NCBI GenBank assembly: GCA_020697715.1
Contig: JAEHCO010000006.1
Span: forward strand, 13,941-77,940
Direction: 5' to 3'
Length of the DNA stretch: 64,000 bases
Source: Methanobacteriota archaeon
GTDB lineage: Archaea; Thermoplasmatota; Thermoplasmata; SG8-5; JAGLSY01
Part shown: positions 25,201 to 31,539 of the stretch, piece by piece
Position numbering within the stretch: the first letter of the stretch is position 1
Layout: every line of letters starts with the position of its first letter
Made by a program: the position numbers and the translations under genes
The notes under the pieces: model-generated
Database searches by the model: none
The model's input: the letters and a program-made list of their open reading frames with translations, nothing else
Told to the model about the DNA's origin: nothing

Positions 25201-25824
25201 TCATTTGTCTGATTTTTCCACACGGGTCCTTAGCAAGCCAGCTGCCCTGAGTTCTTTCTTCAGAGTCTCTACACCTGTTATGATGTCCGCTTCCTGCTTC
25301 GCACCTGTGCACACGACCTTTCCTGATCCGAATAGAAGCATGACGACCTTTGGCACTGCAACCCTGTAAACCAATCCAGGGAACTGCTCTGGCTCGTATT
25401 CCACTCTTTCCAATCCCAGAGTGATGGCTATCGCATTGAGATTGAGATCGCTCTTGAGGTCATAAACTGCAACGATGTTCTGAACTGTTATGACTGGTTT
25501 CTTGATGATCCCGGCCATGCCAGCATCTTCCAGTTTCTTGCTCACTGTCTTGATCGTGGTCTGCACACTCTCAATGGTCTTGGCGCCTGTACAATTTGCC
25601 TTACCACTTCTGAAAAGTAATATAGCTGTCTTCTCTGACTTCAGCCTGTACACGAGCCCAGGAAACTGCTCTGGCTCGTATTCCGCACCCTCAAGTGCGA
25701 GAGCGACTGCTGTAAGATCCAGCTTTTCTGCCAATACTGTCGAAGCAACGATATTCTCGATGCTAACCTCTGTCTTCTGTACTTTCTTATCATCAGATTT
25801 TTTATCTGCTTTCTTTGCTGCCAT
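25201..25824 (-). CDS. tbp: TATA-box-binding protein
   Basis: Two repeats IENIVAS/VQNIVA...YEPEQFPGLVYR...LLF.SGK..CTGAK. Confidence 0.98.
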   Translation of the reverse strand: MAAKKADKKSDDKKVQKTEVSIENIVASTVLAEKLDLTAVALALEGAEYEPEQFPGLVYRLKSEKTAILLFRSGKANCTGAKTIESVQTTIKTVSKKLEDAGMAGIIKKPVITVQNIVAVYDLKSDLNLNAIAITLGLERVEYEPEQFPGLVYRVAVPKVVMLLFGSGKVVCTGAKQEADIITGVETLKKELRAAGLLRTRVEKSDK

Positions 25825-25840
25825 TTTCAAACTCCCCTTA

Positions 25841-26000: not shown

Positions 26001-26636
26001 ATGAAAGCGATCATATTCGACCTTGATGGAACTCTTCTGGATTCCCGCCAGACAATTAGAAGATGTCTCAATGCCGCGATAATGGAATTCGGAGAAGAGC
26101 CATTTGAGGGAGAGGATCTGAAACAACTTATTGGCAGACATCTGATGGAGATCCTGGCCCTGAAAGGTCTGGGAACCGAGGAAGTGGCCGAAAGATATCG
26201 GCAGATACAGATGGACACATACCACCAGGACATGAAGATGTATGACGGAGTGGTCCAGATGCTGGATCTGCTTAAGAAAAATGGTCTTTCTCTGGGAGTG
26301 GCCACCATGAGGAATGGCCGAATAACAAGGGACATACTGAATGGTATCGGGATCGGCCATTATTTTGATGCGATGGTGGGAGTGGATGATGCAGAAAGGC
26401 CGAAGCCAGAGCCGGATCAGGTGGTCAAGGCTTGCCGTCTTTTAGGAGTGAGTGAAAAGGATGCGGCAATGGTGGGAGACACCACCATGGATGTTCTATC
26501 TGGCAAGGCAGCGGGTTGTGCCGCTATCGGAGTCTCATGGGGAAATGGCGAGGCGCAGGATCTGAAGAATGCGGGCGCGGATCATGTATGTGATTCCATG
26601 AAGGAACTGGAGCAATTGCTTCTTGGTATGATCTAA
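26001..26636 (+). CDS. HAD-superfamily hydrolase (phosphoglycolate phosphatase-like)
   Basis: FDLDGTLLDS, KPEP and MVGDTTMD motifs. Confidence 0.92.
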   Translation: MKAIIFDLDGTLLDSRQTIRRCLNAAIMEFGEEPFEGEDLKQLIGRHLMEILALKGLGTEEVAERYRQIQMDTYHQDMKMYDGVVQMLDLLKKNGLSLGVATMRNGRITRDILNGIGIGHYFDAMVGVDDAERPKPEPDQVVKACRLLGVSEKDAAMVGDTTMDVLSGKAAGCAAIGVSWGNGEAQDLKNAGADHVCDSMKELEQLLLGMI

Positions 26637-26802: not shown

Positions 26803-27846
26803 TCAGGCGATCATGGGTATCGCATATTGGATCGTCGTCTGCTCGGACTGCATGCTCATATATGGGTCTGAGAATTCCACACCATTTACCACGGACATTA
26901 TCTTGATCTCTCCATGATAATCATCATCTATCCTGGCACCGAATATCACATTGGCATCTGGTCCCATGAAATCAGTCATTCCACTGATTATCTCATTGGT
27001 CTGAGCCACTGTCAGATCTGGTCCAGAGGTTATGTGAATGAAGGTACTGGAGGCACCGGAATAATCCACATTGAGAAGAGGATTGCCCAATGCTTCCGCG
27101 ATCACAGCCTGTGGATCGTGAGAGGAGTTCTCCGCATAGAGAATGGTGGACGTTCCACCGCCGCTCATGACCGTACGAAGATCTGCAAAGTCCAGATTTA
27201 TCATGGAGGGTTTGAGAATGGCGTCGCTTATGCTCTTTATGACCTCGGAGATAAGCTGATCCATGACACTGAATGCCTGACCAATTGGTAAGGAAGGCAC
27301 CATTGTCAATAATCTATTATTATCCATAATGATCGTACTATCAGTAGCTTTTTTCAGCTTATCAATGCCGATCATGGCCTTCTGCCTTCGACCCTTTTCA
27401 GCATCGAAAGGTGTTGTCACCATGCCGATAACTACTGATCCTAATTCTTTCGCGATTTCTGCTACAACTGGTGCTGAGCCTGTGCCTGTGCCACCGCCCA
27501 TACCTGCTGTAATGAAAGTTATGTCCGCTCCGGAGAGAAGTGATCTAATTTCTTCTCTCGCTTCTTCTGCACAATACTCACCAACCTCTGGGTGTCCACC
27601 TGCGCCTCGGCCCTTCGTGGTCTTGCGACCAATGAGGAGCTTCTTATCAGCGATGATGGTCTTGAGGTGCGCCTCATCGGTGTTGATAGCAATGGTCTCG
27701 GCTCCATGAACACCAAGACGTCCCAGTCTATCCAGACTGTTATTGCCACCACCACCGCAGCCAACCACGACTATCCTGGGGTCAGCTATGAGTTGCTCCA
27801 TCGGCGAGGAGTACTGCAATGCATCGTCTACTATTTTTAATCCCAT
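26803..27846 (-). CDS. ftsZ: Cell division protein FtsZ (probably FtsZ2 type)
   Basis: VVGCGGGGNN, AINTD, GMGGGTGTG and NLDFAD motifs; lies downstream of an RHH gene as in cdrS-ftsZ2 loci. Confidence 0.97.
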   Translation of the reverse strand: MGLKIVDDALQYSSPMEQLIADPRIVVVGCGGGGNNSLDRLGRLGVHGAETIAINTDEAHLKTIIADKKLLIGRKTTKGRGAGGHPEVGEYCAEEAREEIRSLLSGADITFITAGMGGGTGTGSAPVVAEIAKELGSVVIGMVTTPFDAEKGRRQKAMIGIDKLKKATDSTIIMDNNRLLTMVPSLPIGQAFSVMDQLISEVIKSISDAILKPSMINLDFADLRTVMSGGGTSTILYAENSSHDPQAVIAEALGNPLLNVDYSGASSTFIHITSGPDLTVAQTNEIISGMTDFMGPDANVIFGARIDDDYHGEIKIMSVVNGVEFSDPYMSMQSEQTTIQYAIPMIA

Positions 27847-27863
27847 GTTTATCCATCCTGTTT

Positions 27864-28244
27864 GGAGCAGTATTACTGTAAATAATGCATTATCTAATCG
27901 CCCTCGTATCACTAGCGATTAGATGAACTAACACGTCCCAGTTCATATATCTGGTAAGTGTTTGTTCATGAAGAGGTGTACTGCTCCGTAGCACCTTTTC
28001 GTGCATCCCATTCGAGAAATCCTTGTGCGGGCCTTTGGCGGCCCTCGATAAGGTATCCTGAGTGGAGCCATAACTCCACCTGGACATTTCTCGTCCCTAA
28101 TCCAATACCCTATCCCTATGGTATTGGATCCTGACAAGACCATGTTCCCTTCGCCTATTTTCTAATCGCCTCCGTTCTTAATATCGCTAGCGATTAGTTG
28201 AACATACACTTGCCAGTTCATATATCTAGCAAGTGTTTGTTCAA
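27864..28244 (-). ncRNA. Candidate structured cis-regulatory RNA/ncRNA with duplicated two-hairpin module (27893-27968 and 28161-28244)
   Basis: At least 8 stems visible by eye; the two module copies keep their stems while their loops differ. Confidence 0.5.
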
Positions 28245-28564
28245 GGTTCCTGTGAATCCTGCTCCAGGGTCCTTTTTAGCTTCATGCGCACGTAATCTCG
28301 CACGGCATTTCGGACCGCGTCGTCGACGGAGATAGCGTCTCCATCGTGAACGAGCTCTTCGAGCTTGACCACATTTCCCTTTGGCAATTCAACCGTCATA
28401 CGGGTGATGTGCTCCGGTGTGATATGCGTTTCAACGAATTCATCGATGGCGGCCCGGACCACGTCGGATATATTGGTGTACTGGCCCTTGTCAATTAGTA
28501 TCTGGAGGGCTTCTAATTTATCCACGGGTATCCTGACTGTCACTCTCTCTGATTCTTTTGCCAT
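28241..28564 (-). CDS. Ribbon-helix-helix regulator with two RHH domains (CdrS-like)
   Basis: ERVTVRIP...GQYTNISDVVRAAI and RMTVELP...ISVDDAVRNAVRDY; upstream of ftsZ. Confidence 0.85.
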   Translation of the reverse strand: MAKESERVTVRIPVDKLEALQILIDKGQYTNISDVVRAAIDEFVETHITPEHITRMTVELPKGNVVKLEELVHDGDAISVDDAVRNAVRDYVRMKLKRTLEQDSQEP

Positions 28565-28586
28565 GATCGCACCTAGTTTTTCGCCT

Positions 28587-28650
28587 TGTCAGACAGATTT
28601 ATCGTTTCTGTCCGACAGGTATATGACAAAGAAAGTATATAAACCCTTCG
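28587..28650 (-). promoter_or_regulatory. BRE-TATA promoter with two TGTC-N-GACA palindromes downstream
   Basis: Minus strand CGAAGGG-TTTATATA (28636-28650); TGTCAGACA 28587-28595 and TGTCCGACA 28609-28617. Confidence 0.6.
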
Positions 28651-28745
28651 ATAAAAGTGCATTGTTAAGTTATTGTTGTACGAAACCTCTATAAGGGCAA
28701 TGAGTGATTCACCTGTACGATCAAATAAAAGTGAGGGTGAAAAAT

Positions 28746-29123
28746 ATGGGTTTATTAGACGCAGTATTAGGAAATGCAGGGGTTGTTAACTCCCAGGAGT
28801 TAACAAGCGAATACGGAACATTATTGACTGAAGGAGAGATAATTGAAGTTGGATTCAAAGTGATCAGAGATACTTTTATTTTCACTAATAAAAGGATGAT
28901 CCTTGTTGATAAGCAAGGGATCACGGGCAAAAAAACAGAGTACAAATCGATCTTGTACAAAAGCATCTCGAGGTTCAGCATTGAAACCGCAGGAACATTC
29001 GATATGGATGCCGAGCTGAAGATATGGATATCAAGCGAGACAATACCATCCATAGTCAAGACCTTCAATAAAAAGGTCAATATCTACGACTTGCAAAAAG
29101 TGTTGGCAAATCATCTATTGTAA
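28746..29123 (+). CDS. Bacterial PH-domain protein (YvbH/bPH_1-like)
   Basis: IRDTFIFTNKRMILVDKQGITGKK and FSIETAGTFDMDAELKIW motifs. Confidence 0.9.
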   Translation: MGLLDAVLGNAGVVNSQELTSEYGTLLTEGEIIEVGFKVIRDTFIFTNKRMILVDKQGITGKKTEYKSILYKSISRFSIETAGTFDMDAELKIWISSETIPSIVKTFNKKVNIYDLQKVLANHLL

Positions 29124-29448
29124 GTTACCAGTCTCTAAATAGGCTTGATCAGGTCAAATCCTAATGTATATTTTAGATATGCACAAGAAGCTGGCATTCC
29201 TGTTTCGGGATCTGTATCAGATACAAGATCCCGCTCATCATACGAATTGAGTACGATATCAGTTAGATATGTAGGGTTTATACATATATACATAAACCTT
29301 TTAATAACAAGTATAAATAGTTTTAAGTATAACTTCAATAATTGGTATATTGGATGGGTTTTGCACTCATATTGAATGGGTCCATGCTCATATAATGATA
29401 TGAGAAAGTGCGCTGGAGAAGGCGGACTATGACTCAAAAACAAGGGTG

Positions 29449-31539
29449 ATGAAGATGAGAAAAATATTTGCGATCGCATTAGGAATGGTGATGTTATTGT
29501 CTATAACATCAATATTTGTAGTTGGTGACACCGAGCCAAATGATAGCTTCGCGGAAGCTGACTACACCTATGATGGCGACATAATAAGTGGGACATTGAA
29601 TGAATTTACAGATGAATATGACTATTACAGGATGTGGCTGACAGCGGATAATACCGTCAGTATCACCATGTCCAGTTATGCAGATGATTTCGATATGGAA
29701 CTCTATGATAGTGACATGGATTTCTCAATTGATGAATCTACAGATTGGGATTCGAATGAATTGATCATCTATACAGTATCTACAAGTGGATATTATTACT
29801 TAGAGGTCTATGCAGTTAGTGGCTCTGGCAGTTACACACTTTACATAAATGTGGAATCAGCTGCCTCGGATGATGGTAATGACGACTTCTGGGAAGCGGA
29901 TTACACCTATGATGGAGACACGATCTACGGATTATTGGATCAAAGCTCTGACTATGCGGATTATTATCGACTATGGGTGAGTGAGGATGAGACCATCACT
30001 GTCACCATGACAGGCACAGGGGATGACTTTGACATATTCCTGTATGATTACATGGAGAACAATGTCGATTATTCTGATAATAGTGGCACCTCCACCGAAG
30101 AGATAATCTACAAGGTTTTGTCAAGTGGTAATTACTACATAGAGGTCGTTGCATCGTCAGGAGATGGTGATTACACATTGAATGTAGATGCTGCTTATGA
30201 TCTAAGTGCCACTGGCTCCGGTCCAGCTGCCGATGTTCCAGATTGGAACGTGGGCCAGGAATGGGCCTTTGGAAACGTAGTGGATATAGAAAAGGTTCTG
30301 AATCCATATATTGAGGACACACTGACCCAATTGGATGCATTCGGCTTCGAGACCGTCTTTGATATAAATGGAGGAGCGGGATTACTATTTGGAATAGAAG
30401 TAACGGATGACAGCACCATGGTCAATGGAGAAGAGTGCTATGATACAACTGTGAACGCGGCTGTAGCCATTGACTTCGACATGGAGGCTTCTGTTGATGG
30501 AGCCACATCATTATTCGGCCCAAGGATCATCGCGGAAGGTGAAGGTACCGCATCCGGAGAAGGAGAGATCGTCGTAGCAGGAAACGTATACTTCACAAAA
30601 GACAAGCTGGCAATAGCAAAGATCGACCTTAAGATATCAGCTGAGATCGTTGCAGAGGCTTACATGGATGCTACCGTGACAGTCGATGGAGATACAGAGT
30701 TCATCGAATTTGATGCAGAGTTCTCTGCCGAAGATGTTGAGGTCAATTTGAAAATGAACTTTGATCCGCCAATAGACCTGTTCGACTTCCCTATAATGGA
30801 GGGTGATGTCTGGTATGTGCCTCATACAGGAACAGACACATGGGGAAGCGTAACCGCATCTGGTGTCGTTAGGATGGACGTGTCCGGAAATGGACCAGAT
30901 GGAGCAGTCATTAACGAGAGAGAGGTCGAATACCTGAATGACCTGAATGATGGTAACTTCGAAAGCTACATAGATGGTGGACCAGGACGATATGGTGGAG
31001 GCACCTTGTTCGAATGTACTGATCTTACTGGCGATGTTTACACTATCGAATATTACAATGACAACTCCATGGACATATTTGGAACCAGGCAAGACACTGG
31101 CATTATGAACACATTGAGCACTATCCAGGACTCGACAGCAGGTGTTCAGTTCGATGCTTCTTCCGGATTCGTAACCGGTATAACGGTCAATGGAGACACT
31201 ATAACGGATACCGCGACAATGGATGAGGTAGAGGACTTCACAGCAGATCCACAGGGAGAGGTCGATGAGGTCATTGACGGCGGCAGTGGAGCATTCGGCA
31301 TACTTCTGATAATCATCATAGTCGTTGTCGTTGCAGTTGTCATGATGGTGGTCATAATGAACAAGAAGAAATCAAAACAGCCACCACAACATCATCAGCC
31401 ACAGCCATACGGTGGGCAACAAAGCCATCAGCCTTATGATGGTCACCAGCAGCCACCACCACCGCCACAGCACACTCCTGAGCAATACCCGCCTCAGGAA
31501 AATCATCAGCAACCACCACCACCGCCACCACAATATTGA
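29449..31539 (+). CDS. Membrane-anchored surface protein with two PPC domains and Pro/Gln-rich cytoplasmic tail
   Basis: EPNDSF...DYYR...DFDMELYD...SGYYYLEV...GSYTL repeated twice; C-terminal TM; QQPPPPP tail. Confidence 0.8.
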   Translation: MKMRKIFAIALGMVMLLSITSIFVVGDTEPNDSFAEADYTYDGDIISGTLNEFTDEYDYYRMWLTADNTVSITMSSYADDFDMELYDSDMDFSIDESTDWDSNELIIYTVSTSGYYYLEVYAVSGSGSYTLYINVESAASDDGNDDFWEADYTYDGDTIYGLLDQSSDYADYYRLWVSEDETITVTMTGTGDDFDIFLYDYMENNVDYSDNSGTSTEEIIYKVLSSGNYYIEVVASSGDGDYTLNVDAAYDLSATGSGPAADVPDWNVGQEWAFGNVVDIEKVLNPYIEDTLTQLDAFGFETVFDINGGAGLLFGIEVTDDSTMVNGEECYDTTVNAAVAIDFDMEASVDGATSLFGPRIIAEGEGTASGEGEIVVAGNVYFTKDKLAIAKIDLKISAEIVAEAYMDATVTVDGDTEFIEFDAEFSAEDVEVNLKMNFDPPIDLFDFPIMEGDVWYVPHTGTDTWGSVTASGVVRMDVSGNGPDGAVINEREVEYLNDLNDGNFESYIDGGPGRYGGGTLFECTDLTGDVYTIEYYNDNSMDIFGTRQDTGIMNTLSTIQDSTAGVQFDASSGFVTGITVNGDTITDTATMDEVEDFTADPQGEVDEVIDGGSGAFGILLIIIIVVVVAVVMMVVIMNKKKSKQPPQHHQPQPYGGQQSHQPYDGHQQPPPPPQHTPEQYPPQENHQQPPPPPPQY

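Follow-up and report, generated by a model that had tools for sequence, protein, structure and literature searches.

Between the gene for a small ribbon-helix-helix (RHH) regulator and ftsZ, an uncultured Thermoplasmata archaeon carries a long, densely folded spacer, and the question raised by this locus is whether the spacer works as a single regulatory RNA or is assembled from parts of different kinds. The locus lies in the window, a stretch of 64,000 nucleotides (nt) of contig JAEHCO010000006.1 (positions 13,941 to 77,940), in which positions 27864–28244 had been described as a ~350-nt element with a duplicated two-hairpin module; the original prediction took all of it for an undescribed cis-regulatory RNA, processing element or small RNA (sRNA) controlling FtsZ dosage. 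The analysis favors a different picture, at a probability of about 0.6, in which the spacer element is a composite of two things differing in age and kind: a dispersed repeat unit, inserted here in two copies, and an older leader. Judged from sequence, the most striking structure of the region is a passenger.

The source genome (G000; 2.1 Mb in 34 contigs, 94% complete) has as its nearest titled records metagenome-assembled genomes labelled Thermoplasmata, 'Methanomassiliicoccales' and Candidatus Proteinoplasmatales SG8-5. All features of the locus are read on the minus strand, where an RHH protein of 107 residues with two RHH repeats is encoded at 28241–28564 (stop codon TGA at 28243–28241) and FtsZ, of 347 residues, at 26803–27846 (ATG at 27846–27844); the gene calls come from the open reading frame (ORF) heuristics of this analysis, and the ftsZ start was picked to agree with the N-termini of orthologues. 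FtsZ matches TIGR00065 with 357.4 bits, over the cut-off of 295.2, as well as Pfam Tubulin and FtsZ_C. The RHH protein matches Pfam RHH_1 at E 9e-9, and its best NCBIfam match is CdrS (NF058555; 57.2 bits, E 1.2e-15, in two stretches); it is called cdrS-like here because this score lies below the 100-bit cut-off, while the RHH_1 match and the synteny with ftsZ, which its orthologues also adjoin in relatives, are both present. The two genes are separated by 394 nt, almost all of which is filled by the examined element.

A dispersed two-hairpin repeat

Comparison of the spacer with its own genome by BLAST gave matches of the two module parts to about a dozen other places, and no other match better than E 0.2 for the middle of the spacer. 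The repeat unit so delimited is 88 nt long and consists of two directly adjacent hairpins, P1 and P2. A covariance model (R1) built from 13 aligned copies of this genome finds 14 matches in G000 at E ≤ 7e-8 and, beyond these, weak matches at E 0.002, 0.03 and 0.5. Two of the 14 lie in the spacer: copy 2 at 28158–28244 (80.3 bits, E 2.7e-13), with P1 at ~28199–28243, containing the cdrS stop codon, and P2 at ~28161–28197, and copy 1 at 27890–27969 (75.5 bits, E 3e-12). The dispersed copies behind unrelated genes argue against an ftsZ-specific regulatory device, and the unit is probably a structured repeat resembling repetitive extragenic palindromic (REP) elements or MITEs (miniature inverted-repeat transposable elements). 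Many dispersed copies, and hence a MITE or REP, had been named in advance as the outcome that would overturn the original prediction, and for the duplicated module this is what the genome holds.

The geometry described for the duplication is itself accurate. Direct copies run from 27907 to 27968 and from 28182 to 28243 (62 nt, 87% identical), with a further part at 27889–27907 and 28157–28175 (19 nt, 84%); both copies have CTAATCGC/GCGATTAG arms, spaced by 13 and 20 nt, so that the first loop differs in length, and long TGAAC...GTTCA stems with 19-nt arms (84% and 89% complementary) and 9-nt loops. The element does begin at the RHH stop codon, which lies inside its first stem. The two spacer copies are each other's closest relatives and share an extended P1 stem that is not found in the other 11 aligned G000 copies, and a local duplication before G000 and the same-genus genome G003 separated would be the simplest history for them.

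R1 has matches in 6 of 41 genomes, G000 included: in all four other genomes of family f1 (15, 33, 23 and 13 matches) and in one of 13 genomes of family f4 (2 matches). None was found in the 23 remaining genomes, drawn from the order and class, several assemblies being only 59–85% complete, so that not found does not equal absent. Two near-identical copies with similar flanks occur in different families (f4 G021 L036:2566-2653 and f1 G004 L058:1501-1588), a likeness that points to horizontal transfer or to a mis-binned contig (G021 is 59% complete). A scan of a viral collection for the P2 arms returned one match, in an ORF of an unrelated contig; it scored 13.7 bits with the model and was judged to be chance.

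The copies keep close company with gene ends. None of the 14 in G000 lies within a long ORF except for the final few codons; the stop codon of an ORF of at least 100 amino acids (aa) falls at −1 to +1 of the unit start in six of them and within −47 to +14 in ten, and one further copy follows a tRNA gene. G003 has the stop codon at −1 to +1 in 7 of 21 copies and at −8 to +17 in 10 of 21, and most of the 21 copies examined in G001, G002, G004 and G021 lie 7–113 nt past the ORF end, not on the stop. Orientation was tabulated for the 35 copies of G000 and G003 by the nearest ORF of at least 100 aa within 300 nt, keeping the longest of overlapping ORFs. The P1 side faces 23 gene 3' ends and 6 gene 5' ends, with 6 copies lacking an ORF in that range, and the P2 side, which is balanced, 13 and 16, again with 6 lacking one; correction of the cdrS row, which had been misassigned to a longer antisense ORF, brings the P1 side to 24 versus 5. 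The distinct loci are fewer, ~16 versus 3, ten G003 copies sharing sites with G000. The genes upstream are unrelated and include a PIN nuclease, a CBS protein, a polyprenyl synthase, CGI-121, a phosphoribosyltransferase, PrsW, an aminotransferase, two without a Pfam match and the cdrS-like gene. At one G003 site (L055; C11:812530 in G000), the upstream stop TGA reads TGG and the ORF extends by about six codons to a TGA in the P1 loop.

Among the 13 aligned copies, in which P1 begins with YGRA-AC and P2 with TCTAATCGC, 96.9% of the 260 pair cells are standard pairs, and five P1 pairs have two-sided changes (20 cells). Covariation scores 0.232, compared with 0.124 ± 0.016 in shuffled alignments, none of 500 of which reached this value, and sliding the 3' partners as a control lowers the pairing to 31–50%. 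P2 is nearly constant within G000, where 6 of its 10 pairs never vary, and covaries between genomes (CTAAT/ATTAG versus GTAGT/ACTAC), its arms being CTAATCGC/GCGATTAG in G000 and GTAGTTGCG/CGCAACTAC or GTAGTTGTG/CACAACTAC in G004. The evidence as to which strand pairs is mixed: two G-U pairs, in 8 of 13 and 12 of 13 copies, can form only on the strand sense to the upstream gene, and the P2 of the G001/G002 type has a C-A mismatch on that strand which would be G-T on the opposite one. In four orthologous pairs of G000 and G003 copies, changes affect 13 of 160 stem and 35 of 185 loop positions; three are compensatory pairs, four are one-sided changes that keep pairing (three of them as sense-strand G-U) and three break it. 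Compensatory change and the low rate in the stems indicate that the hairpins have been kept by selection after each copy was in place. Readings of the unit as a C/D-box, H/ACA, K-turn or tRNA-like RNA were dropped on inspection of the alignment by eye, the boxes being wanting, and a reading as a promoter, suggested by the AT-rich P2 loop (GAATATA), was set aside as the P2 side meets a gene 3' end in 13 of 35 copies.

Filled and empty sites separate the relatives. Ten of the 21 G003 copies stand at sites orthologous to G000 copies and 11 have no G000 counterpart; one G003 unit falls precisely on a gene's stop codon, where the orthologous G000 gene is followed by a plain 40-nt spacer, and units of G002, G004 and G001 lie within 200–400-nt insertions at sites where G000 has short spacers. 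The cdrS–ftsZ spacer itself varies in this way. DNA contigs of three cold-seep or marine-sediment runs contain it at 85–99% likeness, with the flanks kept and parts skipped: contigs of run X1 skip 28160–28247 (88 nt) and have 11 other letters instead, copy 2 being missing, those of another sediment run skip 28147–28247, and a contig of run X2 skips 27864–27968 (copy 1), with 33 other letters in its place, among which the 3' strand of the terminal helix (described below) is retained. Since contigs skip one copy or the other, both appear to be additions to, or losses from, a continuous leader. The way in which the unit spreads would be by landing, or by being kept, co-directionally behind genes, so that it comes to lie in 3' untranslated RNA.

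A long form of the repeat was also observed, in which the 88-nt unit is joined by a third, GC-rich covarying hairpin (CGCGGAG/CTCCGCG, CGCAGAG/CTCTGCG or CTCGAAGC/GCTTCGAG) and a conserved end (TTGATGGGCATACGGCGG or TTGAGCATATGGCC). It is found at three to four places in G000 (among them C11:314647, C28:68661 and C34:23406), at L039 in G003 and at L035, L041 and L057 in G002, three of these adjoining tRNA genes, and is common in G001, G002 and G004; its ends are partly complementary (GGCCAT...ATGGCC, CCGCCGT...ACGGCGG), and the short unit may have been left over from it. In addition, 300–400-nt insertions with the unit at G001 L061 and G004 L048, compared with C22:72.9k and C11:500.9k of G000, close with one and the same 32-nt hairpin word, the two genomes belonging to different genera, and a larger composite element may exist.

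The leader core and its GGGAUG boxes

What remains of the spacer once the two units are set apart is a leader that begins with a 5' domain (27991–28157), unique in the genome and with a folding z of −4.4. This domain contains a GAAGGGAAC box, GUCUUGUCAGG, a hairpin at 28100–28129 with AUAGGGAU in its loop (GGGAU at 28112–28116), GGGAC at 28093–28097, a three-way junction at 28013–28093 and a GGGAUGCAC box at 28001–28009 that is followed by a GCAC/GUGC hairpin. The leader is closed by a terminal helix, present in the minimum-energy fold and built around a GAGCA/UGCUC core, whose 5' strand GGAGCAGUA (27979–27987) and 3' strand UACUGCUCC (27864–27872) enclose repeat copy 1 in the apical loop. An A-rich stretch (27847–27863) with a Shine-Dalgarno (SD)-like GGAUGG (27853–27858) lies directly ahead of the ftsZ start, and relatives have at this position an A-rich stretch, then GAGGUGA and AUG.

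The spacer folds far better than its composition would give: the 397-nt sense strand reaches −145.5 kcal/mol, versus −93.8 ± 5.5 for 100 shuffles, none of which was as good (z −9.49). All stems named in the original prediction are present in the sequence, including the ATCCAATACC/GGTATTGGAT stem (13-nt arms, 92% complementary), the CGAGAAAT/ATTTCTCG pair (8 nt, 100%, 65 nt apart), the pairing of GGAGCAGTA (27864) with TACTGCTCC (27979; 9 nt, 100%, 106 nt apart), which encloses the proximal copy in a 9-bp helix and belongs to the lowest-energy structure of the 3' part, and the GTGGAG/CTCCAC and GGGCC/GGCCC arms, both seen in predicted folds. The helix proposed to close the junction through CGAGAAAT is missing from the minimum-energy fold, although it has a two-sided change in G003 (CGAGAAAA/TTTTCTCG). 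Attention had further been drawn to an SD-like GGAGGCGAU partly inside a stem, which is misleading, as this word belongs to the repeat unit, lies more than 300 nt from the ftsZ start and recurs as AUAGGCGAU or similar in other copies.

Relatives keep the core. In G003, where both units are present, GGGCC/GGCCC has become GGGTC/GACCC, CGAGAAAT/ATTTCTCG has become CGAGAAAA/TTTTCTCG, the ATCCAATACC hairpin has G-U wobbles on the sense strand, and the GTGGAG arm is absent; sediment contigs skip the same arm (28051–28086 or 28051–28098). Spacers of 183–327 nt in G001, G004, SG8-5, CSMAG_2432 and five f4 genomes share one order of parts: a GGGA-rich box (GAAGGGAAC or ACAGGGAGAAU), CCUUGUCRG, one or two hairpins that differ in size and have GGGAUG words at their flanks, then GGGAUGCACG without variation, another, small hairpin, a GAGCA/UGCUC-closed helix, an A-rich stretch, an SD sequence and AUG. 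Homologous boxes are present in G001, G004, SG8-5 and family f4, and no R1 match was found in those spacer loci that were run (G001, G004, CSMAG_2432, SG8-5 and two f4 records). Hairpins covary within f4 (for example GGACUGCC/GGCAGUUC versus GGACCGCC/GGCGGUUC versus CAGAUCGC/GCGGUCUG), the variable hairpin of the 3' domain has two-sided changes in 6 of its 7 pairs, and the lineage-specific extensions of the terminal helix, its only part informative on pairing, read GUA/UAC here, GC/GC in G004 and AU...AU outward in SG8-5. The core thus stands at the same place in cdrS–ftsZ spacers of f1, f4 and SG8-5, with its structure kept by compensatory change, and is a good candidate for an undescribed cis-regulatory element between cdrS and ftsZ. 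Of the proposed control of FtsZ, the duplicated module falls away as not specific to ftsZ and the unique, conserved core is left as the candidate.

The label 'undescribed' also agrees with the searches made: Rfam 15 returned four matches for 27000–29200, all at E ≥ 1 and far under gathering, and for ten repeat loci only tRNAs, which are neighbors outside the unit, so that neither repeat nor leader matches an Rfam family, and no description of either surfaced in a limited search of the open-access literature.

The recurring feature of the leader is its box. CdrS-like genes are present in 99 of 121 genomes of the class (a tally that includes G109), and 26 of the 30 class spacers read have GGGATG on the sense strand, at a density 23-fold above that of the rest of the loci; the four others have GGATGGGA variants or a box cut off at the edge of the stretch read. 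Of the 11 GGGATGCAC words in the genome, two are in sense orientation in the spacers of its two RHH/FtsZ pairs. Lineages differ in box spacing, which ranges from 0 to >90 nt, with covarying hairpins absorbing the difference. By eye, no conserved TATA-like word was seen in the last 60 nt of the spacers.

The second RHH/FtsZ-like pair (C22:302727-301335, minus strand; L117) combines an RHH gene of 124 aa, with two RHH-like repeats and distant from CdrS, and an FtsZ-like gene of 256 aa (TIGR00065 162 bits, below the cut-off) some 250 nt downstream; GGGAUG stands at the RHH stop codon and GGGAUGCAC in the spacer. A further ftsZ paralogue (C11 ~370679-370700; L118), 44% identical to the window ftsZ, has AGGGAUGGGAAUAAA (CAUAGGGAUGGGAAUAAA) directly before its AUG, and a fourth (C11:376.6k) has an ordinary GGUAGGUG word instead. 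Many lineages also have a CCUAGAA or CUCUAGAA word 3–15 nt past the cdrS stop, often in a hairpin loop, the place of which is occupied by repeat copy 2 in G000 and G003.

Function and competing explanations

A mechanism can be sketched for the leader, tentatively and at somewhat less than even odds. If cdrS and ftsZ are co-transcribed, the leader would fold into a row of hairpins that brings the GGGAUG boxes together for a factor, either a protein or the ribosome, and the terminal helix would fix this structure beside the ribosome-binding site; FtsZ synthesis could thereby be set apart from that of CdrS. The two repeat units would be passengers at permissive sites, one behind the stop codon and the other in the apical loop of the last helix. 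In general the unit might serve 3'-end protection and, where it abuts a stop codon, damp or sense translation termination of the upstream gene. Copy 2, which places the cdrS stop in a stem, might shield the 3' end of cdrS; if the case of E. coli, where translation is reduced by REP elements closer than 16 nt to a stop codon (PMC12306157), is a guide, it may also lower or sense CdrS translation.

A number of results weigh against this composite of mobile repeat and structured leader. For the leader, the GAGCA/UGCUC core is invariant in the spacers of 8 of 8 relatives and hence uninformative on pairing, and the GGGAU boxes have no higher predicted probability of being unpaired than other words rich in G (13 of 23 spacers, Wilcoxon p 0.62); RNA run X4, the only metatranscriptome sharing words, covers the cdrS coding sequence of relatives (likeness under 90–99%) and not the spacer, and counts across relatives rest on kin that are not independent and overstate the support. 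For the repeat, compensatory changes at orthologous copies speak for a function, so that calling it a 'selfish repeat' may fall short. Neither terminal inverted repeats nor a clear target duplication can be seen in the 88-nt unit, although stop-like words at both its ends (UGAA and UAGAA) could hide a duplication of 3–4 nt. No TnpB-type domain was found in the G000 genome; its single IS200-like Y1_Tnp gene (C1:16359-16709) adjoins a long palindrome and a tRNA-like stretch, and the flanks of the Y1 gene in G000, G003 and G001 contain no R1 match at E ≤ 1. Y1 genes, present in 22 of 41 genomes, with relatives that have one mostly carrying one or two copies, do not co-occur with the repeat, being found in 2 of the 4 other f1 genomes and in 13 of 17 genomes of f2–f4, of which 1 of 17 has the repeat. 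Orientation has its exceptions as well, namely the locus C22:294896, situated between divergent genes and holding two copies in tandem in G003, and the 6 of 35 copies without a long ORF within 300 nt on the P1 side.

A single dedicated device, be it a cis-regulatory RNA, a processing element or an sRNA, that spans the full ~350 nt with its modules and sets FtsZ dosage is very improbable. The strong predicted folding (z −9.5), the retention of both copies in G003, the extended P1 stem that sets the two local copies apart from the other 11 aligned and the 9-bp helix spanning the proximal copy would all suit such a device; yet 12 more copies stand behind unrelated genes, the leader core of G001 and G004 comes with no model match in the spacer, relatives from metagenomes miss copy 1 or copy 2 with the flanks intact, and the competing local hairpin near the 3' strand, on which alternative folds would depend, is not conserved in G003, G001 or G004. 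Even less credence can be given to a small protein encoded in the spacer as the cause of its conservation. The G000 spacer has sense ORFs of 47–72 codons (stop to stop), and the box contains AUG, but frames switch between G000 and G003 via indels, G001 and G004 are without homologous ORFs, and ORFs from box AUGs differ in frame and length among f4 spacers; no conserved ORF was found in the spacer, and none accounts for it. An upstream ORF starting at the box AUG was rejected on the same disagreement of the f4 sequences.

Two further explanations are unlikely without being far-fetched. The 88-nt unit might be chiefly a functional RNA module of the 3' untranslated region, its spread secondary, with terminating ribosomes opening the first stem, which holds the stop codon, and so coupling translation of the upstream gene to 3'-end stability of the mRNA, to the efficiency of termination or to how the next gene is expressed. 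This would account for the compensatory changes and for stems that are substituted at less than half the rate of loops, for the G-U pairs that form only on the sense strand (8/13 and 12/13 copies), for the bias of the P1 side to gene 3' ends (24 versus 5) next to an unbiased P2 side, for a stop codon that falls within P1 much more frequently than random placement in a spacer would give, and for the G003 orthologue with TGG, whose ORF continues as far as the next stop, within the P1 loop; the near-stop REP effect in E. coli (PMC12306157) lies in the same direction. Against it, the host genes share no functional theme, copies are dispensable between close relatives, those of G001, G002 and G004 mostly lie 7–113 nt past the stop, the G001/G002-type P2 has its C-A mismatch on the sense strand (G-T on the other), and hairpins recognized as single-stranded DNA by a transposase would be conserved likewise. 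The GGGAT(G) boxes (GGGAUGGGAUGCAC), for their part, could be DNA operators for CdrS or a paralogue that exert transcriptional control, as a roadblock or internal promoter, with the hairpins incidental, a possibility that we consider equally doubtful. They are short direct repeats, often tandem (GGGATGGGATG), the kind of sequence that RHH proteins often bind. One occurs in the spacer of the second RHH/FtsZ-like pair, AGGGATGGGA stands just before another ftsZ paralogue, and the boxes were not preferentially unpaired in the folding test; moreover, Haloferax CdrS binds DNA upstream of ftsZ1 (PMC8406309). Box distances that vary from 0 to >90 nt and are taken up by covarying hairpins are, however, better suited to RNA than to co-operative DNA sites, the boxes are sense in all three loci here and in 26 of 30 spacers, and the 21–46-nt spacers of some lineages leave a promoter no room.

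A bolder pair of linked claims, which we regard as rather improbable, goes beyond the composite of repeat and leader: the 88-nt unit would be a new archaeal 3'-end module and the GGGAUG(CAC)-box leader a class-wide FtsZ riboregulator. If this were true, the unit would be copied to stop codons, or selected there, along the direction of transcription and kept by selection on RNA pairing; with the stop codon held in its first stem, it would act as a portable device tying translation termination to mRNA fate, and the leader, shared by two RHH/FtsZ pairs, would be read by a factor that is possibly an RHH protein acting on RNA. The control of FtsZ dosage in archaea is poorly known, and haloarchaeal work concerns cdrS and ftsZ2 genes that nearly touch, with control via transcription factors; a long, conserved and folded spacer with a fixed box is a concrete candidate element for control of division, whether post-transcriptional or through an operator, across the mostly uncultured Thermoplasmata. 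The repeat family, as an archaeal structured repeat whose first stem swallows the stop codon, would make the REP-like effect of stop-codon hairpins testable outside bacteria.

Known systems and neighboring genes

The closest counterpart of the locus is the haloarchaeal cdrS–ftsZ2 operon, which also has a small RHH regulator directly upstream of ftsZ and is co-transcribed in Halobacterium and Haloferax (PMC7439475, PMC8406309); post-transcriptional control with a processing site near the ftsZ2 5' end has been proposed (PMC8303175). In the original prediction the element was said to lie where cdrL sits in haloarchaea, which is wrong: cdrL lies upstream of cdrS in haloarchaea, where 3 nt separate the end of cdrS from ftsZ2 (PMC7439475, PMC8406309). 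In contrast to these 3 nt between the Haloferax ORFs, the spacer measures 394 nt here and ~180–330 nt in relatives of the order without the repeat, and nothing like the spacer leader and its GGGAUG boxes is mentioned for haloarchaeal cdrS–ftsZ2 in the available parts of PMC7439475, PMC8406309 and PMC8303175. The protein itself differs from haloarchaeal CdrS in staying under the NCBIfam cut-off for CdrS.

Like the 88-nt unit, REP elements are short structured intergenic repeats, mostly behind genes; they are transcribed with these genes, and their hairpins are more conserved than their loops. They include elements within 15 nt of a stop codon, and the unit, multi-copy, extragenic and hairpin-forming (14 copies, with covariation support), has the stop in its first stem in 6 of 14 copies. 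A REP is, however, one palindrome of 20–40 bp, and the unit comprises two different adjacent hairpins in 88 nt; unlike REP elements with their REP-associated tyrosine transposases (RAYTs), it has only 14 copies, an archaeal host, no flanked RAYT-type transposase and no co-occurrence with Y1 genes. MITEs and the hairpin-ended IS200/IS605 derivatives called palindrome-associated transposable elements (PATEs) form another class of small mobile DNA. With the former the unit shares its small size, its lack of coding capacity, its many copies and the occurrence of filled as well as empty sites among relatives, and with IS200/IS605-type elements two related hairpins at the ends and a lack of inverted termini; the longer form, with its third covarying hairpin and partly complementary ends, adds a further likeness. 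As differences, the 88-nt unit itself shows neither terminal inverted repeats nor a clear target duplication, and no parent element with a transposase was found; unlike after a recent burst, its copies are old, with diverged loops, compensated stems and 10 sites shared with G003. The GTAG or CGTC tag of REP ends (abstract of PMC3733652) flanks neither hairpin in the 13 aligned copies.

Further ORFs close to the locus in the window are found at 25201–25830, 26001–26636, 28704–29123 and 29446–31539; among them are a TATA-binding protein and a bacterial-PH-domain protein, both confirmed by Pfam, and, by eye only, a HAD-like ORF and a secreted-looking protein of 697 aa with a proline/glutamine-rich tail.

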